Shown here piece by piece: positions 36,091-56,886 of a stretch of 64,000 nt of DNA. The notes beneath the pieces were generated by a model. The model searched no databases, had not been told where the DNA came from, and saw nothing but the letters and a program-made list of their open reading frames with translations. The DNA lies in assembly GCA_018396415.1 (NCBI GenBank), contig JAGTRE010000002.1, positions 96,824 through 160,823 of the forward strand. Direction: 5' to 3'. How positions within the stretch are numbered: the stretch's first letter is position 1; each line of letters opens with the position of its first letter. A program made the position numbers and the translations under genes. This DNA is from Candidatus Bathyarchaeota archaeon. Lineage in GTDB: Archaea; Thermoproteota; Bathyarchaeia; RBG-16-48-13; JAGTRE01.

Positions 36091-36235
36091 TGGCGGGCCC
36101 GGCGGGAATTGAACCCGCGACCCATCCCCAGGGAGAGGTGAATCATCATCCCTTCCGGGTGTCCTCCGAGCTCGGATAAAAGCCTCACCGAGAGATTTTC
36201 TCCCCGGTGCTCTATCCTAGCTGAGCTACGGGCCC
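36091..36235 (-). tRNA. Intron-containing tRNA (about 70-nt intervening sequence); anticodon not resolved
   Basis: Minus-strand RNA: GGGCCCG-TA-GCTC-AGCTAGGATA-GAGC ... GCGGG-TTCAATT-CCCGC-CGGGCCC-G-CCA. Acceptor, D-arm and T-arm are canonical and CCA is encoded. The anticodon region is interrupted by about 70 nt containing hairpins; exon junctions could not be fixed by eye. Confidence 0.6.
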
Positions 36236-37470: not shown

Positions 37471-37563
37471 GGGCCCGTGGCCTAGTTGGATAAGGCGTCG
37501 GCCTTCGGACATTTCGATTTGGAAGAGAGCCGGAGATCGAGGGTTCAAATCCCTCCGGGCCCG
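37471..37563 (+). tRNA. tRNA-Arg (anticodon TCG) with a 19-nt intron at the canonical 37/38 position
   Basis: GGGCCCG-TG-GCC-TAGTTGGATAA-GGC-G-TCGGC-CTTCGG[ACATTTCGATTTGGAAGAG]A-GCCGG-AGATC-GAGGG-TTCAAAT-CCCTC-CGGGCCC-G; CCA not encoded. Confidence 0.75.
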
Positions 37564-40242: not shown

Positions 40243-40779
40243 GTGTTAACGTTGGCTCTACAAATCGAGGCGATTTATGTTGAAGGAAAACTAATCGTTT
40301 CCTCATCGGAAGCAGTTTCATCTCTAGAGCAAAGAGGCTATGGCACAAAGGAAGAAAAAACGGGTTTAATTCTTTCACCCACTGAAGCCCTCTACTTACT
40401 TGGTGACAAGAAACTCCGTGTAGTTGACAAAGATAGTGGCATTGAACAAGATTTTCCAACGCTCCTTGGAAAAATACGTACAATTGATCCTGAAATTTGG
40501 ATAAGATATCTGATTTACAGAGATCTTAGAGATCGAGGTTACGTTGTCCGCGAAGGCTTTGGTCTCGGAGTTGACTTCCGAGTATACGAACGGGGGCAAT
40601 ACGGGGAAGAAGCAGCCAAATACATTGTATTTGGGATTTCAGAAGGGACTCCAATTCCTGTTGGGAAAATTGTTGAACTCCTAAGATACGTCCAAAGTTT
40701 GAAACGTGAACTCGTACTCGCAGTTATCGACCGACGGGGAGAGATTGTGTATTACTCTGTCTCACAATTGACATTCTAG
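40243..40779 (+). CDS. endA: tRNA-splicing endonuclease EndA (short, about 178-aa form)
   Basis: Catalytic-domain block RDLRDRGYVVREGFGLGVDFRVYERG with conserved Tyr/His/Lys context. Confidence 0.85.
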   Translation: MLTLALQIEAIYVEGKLIVSSSEAVSSLEQRGYGTKEEKTGLILSPTEALYLLGDKKLRVVDKDSGIEQDFPTLLGKIRTIDPEIWIRYLIYRDLRDRGYVVREGFGLGVDFRVYERGQYGEEAAKYIVFGISEGTPIPVGKIVELLRYVQSLKRELVLAVIDRRGEIVYYSVSQLTF

Positions 40780-40806: not shown

Positions 40807-42117
40807 TTATTTGCCGCAACTTAACATTTGTATCAACTCATCAACAGAAATCTCTCTTTCTTCTCGAGTTTCCATCACTTTCAATCTAAACTTCCCTTTT
40901 TGAATTTCTTCTGGACCAATGATAAGCACATATGGAATTCCTTTAGAATCAGCGTATTCGAGTTGCTTTGTCAGCCGCCTTCCCATAAGGTCGACCTCAG
41001 TTGAAATCCCAGCTTCCCTAGTTCGTCTGGCAATTGCCAAGGCATCCTTATGTAAACTTTCATCAACCGTGGAGATGAATAACTTCACCAAGGTCTTTGG
41101 CTGATTAAACATTCCCTCGTCTTCCATTATCTCAACAATCCGCTCAATACCAATTGATATTCCGGTCGCAGGCGAAGGCGCGCCACCATAAAGTGCGATC
41201 AAATTATCGTATCGCCCGCCCCCAGCAACGCTCCCTACATTTTTCTTGGCTTGAACATTAATTTCATATATGGGTCCAGTGTAGTAATCTAAACCCCGCA
41301 CTAAGCTAAAATCAACGATAAATTTACCTGCAATTGCATAGTCGGTAGCTTTTTCAAGTATTTCGTCAAGCTCACTCAATCCCTCTTCTGCAATTTTAAT
41401 TCCGCCCAAAAGTTTTCTTGCCTTTTCAGGGATTTCGTTAACACCCTTCAGTGAGACGTATTCCAGTAGCATTTCACTAGACTCCTCAGATATGCCACGC
41501 TTTAAAAGTTCCTTTTTAACTCCATCTAATCCTATTTTATCTAGTTTATCAAACGCACGAAATACACCAAATGCCTTGGACTCCGGGATGCCAGCTAATC
41601 GGACAAACCCGTCTAGAACTTTCCGATTGCTAAGCCTAAGCGTGAAATTCGTAAAACCTAAAGCCTTTAGGCAGTCTGCTGCCACAGCAAGTACCTCGAC
41701 ATCAGCGTCCATCTTACTACTGCCAACCACATCCGCGTCCGCTTGCCAAAACTCGCGAAAACGCCCGCTTTGAGGTTCCTCATAGCGCCAAACCCGCGAG
41801 ATACAATATCGCTTGAATGGTTTGGGAATTGCCGGATTGCTGGCCACTAACCGTGCCAGGGGAACCGTCAAATCAAATCTCAAGCCAAGCAACCGGCCAC
41901 CACGATCTTCGAATTTATAGATTTGTTCTCGGATTTCTTCACCGCACTTTGCAGTTAAAACATCCCACTGCTCAAAAGCTGGGGTTTCAATTTCGTCAAA
42001 ACCATAGTTCTCAAAAACCTTACGAATTTTCTCCATAACAAACCGACGCTTAATCATTTCTTTCGGCATAAAGTCTCGAGTTCCGCGAGGGCGTCCAATC
42101 TTTTTTCCTTTAAACAT
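40807..42117 (-). CDS. hisS: Histidyl-tRNA synthetase
   Basis: Class II motifs, HisRS N-terminus RGTRDFMP, C-terminal anticodon-binding domain; 436 aa. Confidence 0.9.
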   Translation of the reverse strand: MFKGKKIGRPRGTRDFMPKEMIKRRFVMEKIRKVFENYGFDEIETPAFEQWDVLTAKCGEEIREQIYKFEDRGGRLLGLRFDLTVPLARLVASNPAIPKPFKRYCISRVWRYEEPQSGRFREFWQADADVVGSSKMDADVEVLAVAADCLKALGFTNFTLRLSNRKVLDGFVRLAGIPESKAFGVFRAFDKLDKIGLDGVKKELLKRGISEESSEMLLEYVSLKGVNEIPEKARKLLGGIKIAEEGLSELDEILEKATDYAIAGKFIVDFSLVRGLDYYTGPIYEINVQAKKNVGSVAGGGRYDNLIALYGGAPSPATGISIGIERIVEIMEDEGMFNQPKTLVKLFISTVDESLHKDALAIARRTREAGISTEVDLMGRRLTKQLEYADSKGIPYVLIIGPEEIQKGKFRLKVMETREEREISVDELIQMLSCGK

Positions 42118-42189: not shown

Positions 42190-42299
42190 TGGCGGGCCTG
42201 ACGGGATTTGAACCCGCGACCTACAGCTTTCCCCAGAGGCTATAGGAGGCTCGGCTGATCTGGTCATCTGCCGCGCTGTCCAAACTGCGCCACAGGCCC
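42190..42299 (-). tRNA. Intron-containing tRNA (about 32-34 nt extra); anticodon not resolved, intron probably non-canonical
   Basis: Minus-strand RNA GGGCCTG-TG-GCGC-AGTTTGGACA-GCGC-G-...-AGGTC-GCGGG-TTCAAAT-CCCGT-CAGGCCC-G-CCA. Intervening region contains hairpin GGCAGAT-GACCAG-ATCAGCC; no U33-containing loop is found at a canonical position. Confidence 0.55.
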
Positions 42300-45291: not shown

Positions 45292-45339
45292 CACAGCAAA
45301 AGCATTCGCAAGAAAAAGTTTCCGTACCTATTGAATGGA

Positions 45340-45482
45340 GGCCGCGGTCGGGATTTGAACCCGAGCGACCGTCCCATTCCTTTAATCAATTAATGGAATG
45401 GGTGTCCGGCTCCATTGACCAGGATAGAGGCTACGCATTAATCCTTCAGGCCGGTAGGCTAACCAGACTACCTCACCGCGGC
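45340..45482 (-). tRNA. tRNA with two introns (about 32 nt in the anticodon loop, about 36 nt hairpin in the variable region); anticodon reads GAA (Phe-like) but discriminator is C
   Basis: Minus-strand RNA GCCGCGG-TG-AGGT-AGTCTGGTTAG-CCTA-CCGGC-CTGAAG[32 nt]A-GCCGG-[CCCATTCC-ATTAATTGATTAAA-GGAATGGG hairpin]-TCGGG-TTCAAAT-CCCGA-CCGCGGC-C; 143 nt. Confidence 0.5.
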
Positions 45483-45584
45483 CAACTTTTGCCATCCTTA
45501 CAACCATCACTTTTTCATTAAGTTTTCTTTAAAGGTTGTTGGACAACTAACCTTAGGGAATTTGGAAGATTGAAGTATGAGCCC

Positions 45585-50451: not shown

Positions 50452-50545
50452 TGGTGGACCGGGCGGGATTCGAACCCGCGACCCCTTGGTCTTTTGAGAA
50501 AGCCCATGCAAACCAAGTGCTCATACCGAGCTGAGCTACCGGCCC
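50452..50545 (-). tRNA. tRNA-Ala (anticodon TGC) with a 16-nt intron at/near 37/38; G3-U70 present
   Basis: Minus-strand RNA GGGCCGG-TA-GCTC-AGCTCGGTAT-GAGC-A-CTTGG-TTTGCA[TGGGCTTTCTCAAAAG]A-CCAAG-GGGTC-GCGGG-TTCGAAT-CCCGC-CCGGTCC-A-CCA. Confidence 0.85.
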
Positions 50546-56744: not shown

Positions 56745-56886
56745 AGCGGGGTGGGGTAGCAAGAGAGGACAATGAAGTCCCTCTTGCCGAACCAGGTTTA
56801 ATGAGTACTTGTAGTGAACAAGCCTCGAATTCCCCGCAGGGCTCATAACCCTGAGATCGGTGGTTCAAATCCACCCCCCGCTACCA
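56745..56886 (+). tRNA. Initiator tRNA-Met (anticodon CAT) with about 62 nt of intervening sequence inside the D-loop (non-canonical)
   Basis: A1-U72 (AGCGGGG.../...CCCCGCT-A-CCA); anticodon arm CAGGG-CTCATAA-CCCTG with three G-C pairs (initiator hallmark); T-arm GGTGG-TTCAAAT-CCACC. D-stem GGGG/CCCC encloses TAGC + about 62 extra nt with hairpins AAGAGAGGA/TCCCTCTT and CTTG-TAGTGAA-CAAG. Confidence 0.7.

Follow-up and report, generated by a model that had tools for sequence, protein, structure and literature searches.

Introns of archaeal tRNA genes are marked by a bulge-helix-bulge (BHB) motif, in which two 3-nt bulges on opposite strands are separated by a 4-bp helix and the cleavage point lies after the second base of each bulge. 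For the resolution of tRNA genes with more than one intron, tRNAscan-SE 2.0 was designed. Non-canonical introns in multiple BHB motifs, up to three per gene, have been described for Thermoproteales, other Crenarchaeota, Thaumarchaeota, and Caldiarchaeum (PMC4090602; PMC8450103; PMC3218864; PMC3293823), and multi-intron tRNA genes are also attributed to Marck and Grosjean (2003) and Sugahara et al. (2008), as these works are cited in PMC8450103 and PMC4090602. The list of intron positions in PMC4090602 includes 3/4, 20/21, 22/23, 25/26, 29/30, 30/31, 45/46, 53/54, 56/57, 59/60, and “etc.” Among these, 45/46 is a documented non-canonical site (PMC4090602; PMC3293823), and the tRNA-Thr of C. subterraneum has introns at both 24/25 and 45/46 (PMC3293823). 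For non-canonical sites, broad-specificity forms of the splicing endonuclease EndA are generally needed (PMC3241643; PMC5829648). A different type of interruption is known for the tRNA-His of Nanoarchaeum equitans, which is split at 37/38 into two separately transcribed halves joined in trans (PMC4090602).

The locus analyzed here belongs to a 64-kb stretch of DNA, herein referred to as the window, from a hot-spring Candidatus Bathyarchaeia archaeon. With high confidence, this locus can be interpreted as a functional pre-tRNA-His(GUG) with two introns, for which protein-mediated splicing and both junctions are predicted. Similarly to the multi-intron tRNAs of other archaea, the gene contains two short introns (32 and 37 nt) located in BHB motifs, one of them at 45/46, and their removal restores the cloverleaf; an EndA gene is present, and tRNAs of the same genome carry one to three introns. 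Unlike the cases from Thermoproteales, the host is a metagenome-assembled genome (MAG) of hot-spring Bathyarchaeia, and the first of the two introns separates bases 34 and 35 of the anticodon. The 34/35 site is absent from the position list of PMC4090602, which is open-ended and beyond which the primary catalogues lie. No published example of a 34/35 intron was found in a literature search, in which “34/35” could not be matched as a term. The site is considered mildly unusual here, and novelty is not claimed.

The gene occupies positions 45340-45482 on the minus strand, with exact bounds, and an encoded G-1 precedes it at 45483. In the first-pass annotation, a tRNA with two introns had been described at these positions, and both the covariance-model search and the BHB scan agree with this description. 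In a search of a 321-nt region, the Rfam model RF00005 matched with 39.1 bits (gathering score 29, E = 5e-7) over the full model length (model positions 1-71), with two large insertions. The gene was not reported by the gathering-threshold Rfam scan of the full 64-kb window, being lost to the speed filters; multi-intron tRNAs can be concealed by such filters. ARAGORN in the default mode also did not call a tRNA at 45340-45482. The fold of the unspliced RNA is better than that of shuffled sequence (z = -3.5), and 0 of 200 shuffles folded equally well.

With introns in square brackets, positions 45340-45483 of the minus strand are arranged as G-GCCGCGG-UG-AGGU-AGUCUGGUUA-GCCU-A-CCGGC-CUG[AAGGAUUAAUGCGUAGCCUCUAUCCUGGUCAA]UGGA-GCCGG-AC[ACCCAUUCCAUUAAUUGAUUAAAGGAAUGGGACGGUC]GC-UCGGG-UUCAAAU-CCCGA-CCGCGGC-C. 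As read from the sequence, G-1 can form an eighth acceptor pair with C73. Exon 1 (45447-45482, tRNA positions 1-34) was delimited by the Rfam alignment, the BHB scan, and the splice search; it contains the 5' acceptor strand GCCGCGG, the D-arm, the 5' strand of the anticodon stem, and C32, U33, and G34. It is followed by the 32-nt intron 1 (45415-45446, at 34/35) and by exon 2 (45404-45414, positions 35-45), which contains U35, G36, G37, and A38, the 3' strand of the anticodon stem GCCGG, and A44 and C45. The 37-nt intron 2 (45367-45403, at 45/46) was located by the BHB scan and the splice search. Exon 3 (45340-45366, positions 46-73) contains G46 and C48, the T-arm UCGGG-UUCAAAU-CCCGA, the 3' acceptor strand CCGCGGC, and the discriminator C73, the last of which had been correctly recognized in the first-pass annotation and corresponds to window position 45340. 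The CCA end is not encoded.

The BHB cleavage rule was checked on tRNA-Arg(UCG) and tRNA-Ala(UGC) of the same window, for which canonical 37/38 splicing was correctly reproduced. Intron 1, the sequence of which is AAGGAUUAAUGCGUAGCCUCUAUCCUGGUCAA, was the top candidate of the BHB scan and has a strict hBHBh' motif: the H helix has 4/4 pairs, both bulges are 3 nt long, and the helices on either side have 2 and 5 bp. In this motif, the H helix is formed by G29-G30-C31-C32 (GGCC) and GGUC, and the bulges are U33-G34-A (UGA) and A-A-U35 (AAU). The inner helix is AGGAU/AUCCU, and the outer helix C27-C28/G36-G37 (CC/GG) has only 2 bp. No other strict BHB was found in the anticodon region than this one, CUG|...|UGGA. 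An insert of about 32 nt had previously been placed after CTGAAG; its length agrees with that of intron 1, but its start does not, as the 5' site given by the BHB follows CUG (position 34) and the 3' site precedes UGGA. Since the intron is placed at 34/35, the “GAA” visible in the DNA consists of G34 and the first two intron bases.

The motif of intron 2 (ACCCAUUCCAUUAAUUGAUUAAAGGAAUGGGACGGUC) is slightly relaxed. The second insert had been described as a perfect hairpin between the anticodon stem and the T-stem; such a hairpin is indeed present, with a perfect 8-bp inner helix CCCAUUCC/GGAAUGGG, and forms part of the 37-nt intron. The bulges of its BHB are ACA and UCG, and the outer helix is GAG/CUC, so the flanking helices have 3 and 8 bp. 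In the H helix, C40-C41-G42-G43 (CCGG) faces ACGG, giving 3 pairs of 4 and a conserved G.A. In the motifs of both introns, the helix on each side reaches the minimum of 2 bp that was applied here to a BHB. The site of intron 2 can equally be written as 44/45, with an identical product.

Both the BHB helices of intron 1 and the hairpin of intron 2 were formed, unprompted, in the minimum free energy fold of the unspliced RNA. In the precursor, the 5' strand of the future anticodon stem is paired with the 3' end of intron 1, and the 3' strand with the 3' end of intron 2. Because the two strands are held by different introns, the BHB motifs are mutually compatible, and the mature stem is possible only after splicing. 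All BHB-consistent splicing paths with up to three introns were enumerated and subjected to a strict cloverleaf test; only solutions with the GUG anticodon were found, and none with GAA. The strict test replaced brute-force splicing at every weak BHB candidate with ARAGORN as the judge, which was too permissive and accepted many spurious products. Copies of intron 1 or intron 2 elsewhere in the 64-kb window were also searched for, with self matches only. A likeness of the hairpin to a CRISPR repeat (Rfam CRISPR-DR35, 14.1 bits vs. a gathering score of 35) was treated as chance.

The predicted junctions of the spliced product are GGCCUG^UGGAGCCGGAC^GCUCGGG, i.e., CUG^UGGA and AC^GC. The product would have 74 nt, or 75 nt together with G-1, with the anticodon loop CUGUGGA, the anticodon GUG, and the 4-nt variable loop ACGC. 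Its cloverleaf has 7/4/5/5 pairs in the acceptor, D, anticodon, and T stems, and U8, U33, and the T-loop UUCAAAU are present. ARAGORN identified the spliced product as tRNA-His(GTG) with an 8-bp acceptor stem including G-1:C73. The GUG anticodon arises only by splicing at the predicted BHB sites. The hallmark of tRNA-His is a G-1 paired with C73, and in archaea and bacteria this G-1 is encoded in the genome. The identity set of the gene had been regarded as unusual in the first-pass annotation, where the G-1 at 45483 was overlooked; C73 and an encoded G-1 are together the normal set for tRNA-His. The G-1:C73 pair corresponds to alignment columns 1 and 144 and is G-C in 6/6 orthologs, the tRNA analyzed here included.

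For comparison, a pattern based on the D-arm of the gene was searched for in 185,579 species genomes, one per archaeal and bacterial species. In total, 78 matches were found, all of them archaeal; 67 belong to tRNA-His, with CUG followed by UGG, and 11 to tRNA-Pro(GGG) of Archaeoglobi. Among the matches listed, every tRNA-His has a G before position 1, and the tRNA-Pro genes have A, G, or T. The matches with the UGAGGUAG...UUAGCCU variant, as in the gene analyzed here, are all tRNA-His, all with G-1 and C73, and come from Bathyarchaeia, Geoarchaeota, or Korarchaeia-like Thermoproteota. The spliced product is 88-91% identical to intron-less tRNA-His of Bathyarchaeota, e.g., that of CP070759.1 (L069), and scored 59.4 bits with a tRNA-His profile HMM, about 20 of the 75 positions being circular in these identity and HMM figures, as the D-arm pattern behind the comparison set was derived from the gene itself. 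With the same HMM, the other spliced tRNAs of the window (Arg, Ala, and iMet) scored 7-13 bits. The product and the intron-less Bathyarchaeota genes also have the same length of 75 nt, the D-arm UGAGGUAGUCUGGUUAGCCU, the loop CUGUGGA, 4-nt variable loops (GCGC or CCGC in the intron-less genes), and G-1:C73. A tRNA-His covariance model built from 24 intron-less genes performed poorly on unspliced DNA: the 5' half scored 25.3 bits and the T-arm, separately, 14.8 bits, generic tRNAs scored higher, and the alignment was broken by the 69 nt of inserts.

The identity proposed earlier from the DNA was tRNA-Phe(GAA), in which a canonical 37/38 intron follows CUGAAG, another intron is present, and C73 is aberrant. 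We regard this reading as highly improbable, even though a formal cloverleaf, called Phe(GAA) by ARAGORN, also results when the 32 nt that follow CUGAAG are removed, and ARAGORN in the intron mode reports the unspliced sequence as Phe(gaa) with a 69-nt intron. No BHB exists at the sites required for it: the H helix worked out from the sequence, CUGA vs. CAAU, would have 1/4 pairs. Furthermore, these sites fall inside conserved BHB helices, the 5' site lying between alignment columns 40 and 41 within the helix 39-43:59-63, and the exhaustive BHB and cloverleaf search contains no GAA solution. The discriminator of archaeal tRNA-Phe is A73, and C73 with G-1 are elements of His, not Phe. Even with GAA forced into the anticodon, the tRNA body retained 53.3 bits on the tRNA-His profile, with the same partial circularity. 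The doubt about the splice position or the identity that accompanied the GAA reading was justified, as the site lies 3 nt upstream and the predicted identity is His.

The class of the tRNA was also considered. Since the hairpin is located in the variable region, it might be a genuine long variable arm of a Ser- or Leu-type class II tRNA, and one contrived removal does give the anticodon UGA and a “Ser” call by ARAGORN. The probability of this explanation is close to negligible. The UGA reading requires C33, and the discriminator is C, in contrast to G in archaeal Ser and A in archaeal Leu. The distance between the anticodon stem and the T-stem is 41 nt, with an AU-rich hairpin of 8-13 bp, far above the arms of class II tRNAs, and the loop and outer pairs of the hairpin vary freely among orthologs. 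The hairpin is bounded by a BHB, and its removal leaves ACGC, resembling the GCGC and CCGC of intron-less Bathyarchaeota tRNA-His; the body of the tRNA and its 4-nt variable loop are those of a class I tRNA-His.

A metagenome search with the D-arm of this gene, in which CUG and then any base except U had to come next, yielded five orthologs (L083-L087) of the interrupted tRNA-His gene, all with both introns at identical positions. Their loci are syntenic, with the gene order DUF87, tRNA, TRAM, TRAM, radical SAM, tRNA, HisRS, and EndA, and the encoded proteins are 71-93% identical to those of the window, except for one small TRAM protein with 93-100% identity. The two-intron form is limited to one hot-spring sublineage, represented by the window and these five metagenomic orthologs. 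When the six sequences are aligned, variation is seen in 2/75 columns of the exons and in 20/69 columns of the introns (Fisher p = 1e-5). The two variable exon columns are in the D-loop (exon 1) and in the T-loop (exon 3, A/G); exon 2 is invariant in 6/6 sequences. Within intron 1, variability is confined to the loop, which differs in both sequence and length (variable columns: 0/18 in the BHB-forming segments vs. 11/14 in the loop, p = 3e-6). In intron 2, the orthologs differ at the first intron base and at the base that opens the 3' bulge, but agree at the adjoining exon bases. In the covariation test on the six orthologs, 0 pairs were changed on both sides, and the BHB helices were invariant; with no compensatory double changes, the support for the motifs consists in conservation and constraint, not in covariation.

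This pattern bears on whether the gene might be a decaying or redundant pseudogene with inserts that are never removed. The mismatch in the H helix of intron 2 would fit such decay, and the tRNA survey covered the 64-kb window, leaving room for a second tRNA-His elsewhere in the genome. Nevertheless, the exons are near-invariant across six lineages in which the neighboring proteins have diverged to the identities given above, and in which the intron loops and the flanks have diverged as well. The BHB-forming intron segments are invariant, a TATA-like element is conserved upstream, and the cloverleaf of the spliced product is perfect. Near-invariant exons combined with variable intron loops make a pseudogene unlikely, and we assign only a very small probability to this explanation.

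The upstream region of the presumed functional gene contains a conserved A/T-rich element, CCUUUAAAGAAAA, at 45523-45535 on the minus strand (-53 to -41). This element is retained in 6/6 orthologs, the surrounding sequence being diverged, and is a probable archaeal BRE/TATA promoter. Its distance from the gene is similar to that of the tRNA promoters of T. pendens, for which 30-49 nt were reported (PMC3218864). As a separate observation, the segment 45484-45535 (minus strand) consists of the TATA-like element CCUUUAAAGAAAACUUAA followed by a 5' leader, GUGAUGGUUGU, conserved in 6/6 orthologs, one of which has GUGGUGG. The conservation of the leader may reflect only the close relatedness of these genomes. 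A box C (GUGAUGG) in the leader, combined with CUGA at the exon-intron junction, was considered and dropped, as one ortholog has GUGGUGG instead. Downstream of the gene, a run of five U at 45313-45317 on the minus strand, 23-27 nt 3' of C73, is a possible transcription stop; the orthologs have CUCUUUCUU at the matching position.

The genes for the histidyl-tRNA synthetase (HisRS) and for EndA are located side by side in the window, 3 kb and about 5 kb from the tRNA-His gene, respectively. The HisRS (40807-42117, minus strand) matches the NCBIfam model TIGR00442 (hisS) with 428 bits vs. a cut-off of 287 and is named histidine--tRNA ligase [Candidatus Bathyarchaeota archaeon]. The tRNA-splicing endonuclease EndA (40252-40779, plus strand, 175 aa) matches TIGR00324 (endA) with 87.9 bits vs. 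a cut-off of 59.6 and contains the Pfam domains tRNA_int_endo_N and tRNA_int_endo. Its closest solved structures are those of Methanopyrus kandleri (5x89) and Methanocaldococcus jannaschii (1a79). No EndA paralog was found within the 64-kb window, and the EndA at 40252-40779 is expected to be the enzyme that cuts both BHB motifs. A neighborhood of tRNA-His and HisRS was also observed in two loci of Korarchaeia-like Thermoproteota (L009 and L047).

By analogy with the archaeal tRNA-splicing pathway, the following maturation route can be proposed. Transcription would start downstream of the conserved TATA-like element, producing a precursor in which both strands of the future anticodon stem are each locked in a BHB. 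Cleavage by EndA would take place in all four 3-nt bulges, leaving three exons for an RtcB-type ligase to join. Splicing would thereby create the anticodon stem, the loop CUGUGGA with the GUG anticodon, and the 4-nt variable loop ACGC. RNase P would leave the encoded G-1, CCA would be added, and HisRS would recognize G-1:C73. This route resembles that of the split tRNA-His of N. equitans in that the anticodon region would be assembled via EndA cleavage at a BHB and ligation; unlike in N. equitans (PMC4090602), a single transcript is predicted here, with splicing in cis at 34/35 and 45/46.

The window contains six tRNA genes, located between 36 and 57 kb, and each of them is interrupted. Together they carry about 11 introns, or about 1.8 per gene in this small sample, a higher density than the averages published for Thermoproteales. 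On average, the tRNA genes of Thermoproteales have 0.84 introns, and P. calidifontis has 71 introns in 46 genes (PMC8450103). Besides tRNA-His(GUG), with its two introns at 45340-45482, two genes have a single canonical intron at 37/38. One of these is tRNA-Arg(UCG) (37471-37563, plus strand), resolved by BHB splicing and called “???(cgga)” by ARAGORN. The other is tRNA-Ala(UGC) (50455-50545, minus strand), with G3:U70 and A73, which ARAGORN called Pro(TGG) at 50452-50545. The tRNA-Arg(CCU) gene (42193-42299, minus strand), located between the radical-SAM gene and the HisRS gene, has two introns in the anticodon arm, namely 18 nt after position 30 (approximately 42250-42267) and 14 nt after position 38 (approximately 42228-42241). 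These introns were not recovered by the strict BHB search. Between the window and L085, the differences in the anticodon arm of this tRNA fall in the two intron segments, and the 8-nt middle exon CCUCCUAU is conserved.

The initiator tRNA-Met (56745-56883, plus strand; AGCGGGG...CCCCGCU-A, CCA encoded) has two 32-nt D-loop introns (56760-56791 and 56796-56827). Its Rfam match covers only model positions 7-64, with 29.2 bits, and the 5' acceptor strand was located by a search for AGCGGGG. The sixth gene (36094-36235, minus strand; Rfam 42.7 bits, G73, encoded CCA) contains three inserts in about 142 nt and is probably a tRNA-Lys(UUU). The removal of its 20-nt insert near 30/31, which has a strict BHB, exposes the loop CUUUUAU; the 16-nt insert near 38-40 and the insert of about 31 nt at 45/46 fall outside the strict BHB rule. 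Together, the tRNAs of the window suggest an unusually intron-rich lineage of Bathyarchaeia. A bolder proposal can be offered only tentatively, with somewhat less than even confidence: this hot-spring lineage might have independently gained a tRNA-intron load at least as high as that of the record Thermoproteales, including anticodon-splitting 34/35 introns, with an EndA that is closer to the types of M. kandleri and M. jannaschii than to the crenarchaeal alpha subunit.

In contrast to the gene analyzed here, the tRNA-His genes of Bathyarchaeota relatives are uninterrupted or have a T-loop intron instead (L064). Since related tRNA-His genes of Bathyarchaeota are intron-less, both introns appear to be gains. 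More broadly, interruptions of tRNA-His appear to have arisen on repeated, independent occasions within the sample of the D-arm scan.

Introns at other sites of tRNA-His were observed in the archaeal loci L009, L016, L019, L024, L025, L028, L032, L039, L047, L048, L064, and L070, and further tRNA-His loci with introns elsewhere are L014, L022, L038, L040, L061, L079, and L080. T-loop introns in tRNA-His were observed in several Thermoplasmata, in Kor3-like Thermoproteota, and in one Bathyarchaeota genome. In Altiarchaeota-like genomes, this tRNA has long introns at the canonical 37/38 site.

Interrupted by two BHB introns, the tRNA-His gene is an ordinary case of a phenomenon already known in archaea, and the knowledge of the splicing mechanism is unchanged by it. 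It is mildly notable for the anticodon-splitting position and for the heavy intron load in a lineage of Bathyarchaeia, and it provides a clean, conserved example of an anticodon-interrupting intron. The raw DNA reads GAA, and the gene is overlooked by ARAGORN or reported as Phe; an automated tRNA census of this MAG could therefore list tRNA-His as missing and include a spurious tRNA-Phe with unusual identity elements. Such an error invites wrong conclusions on the genetic code or on genome completeness. The apparent intron gains are useful for the study of intron spread, and the findings suggest that a heavy proliferation of non-canonical BHB introns, best known in Thermoproteales, also took place in a sublineage of Bathyarchaeia. 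If the high intron load holds true genome-wide, standard annotation of such MAGs would mis-assign or miss many tRNAs, and broad-specificity splicing together with intron proliferation would have arisen outside Thermoproteales.
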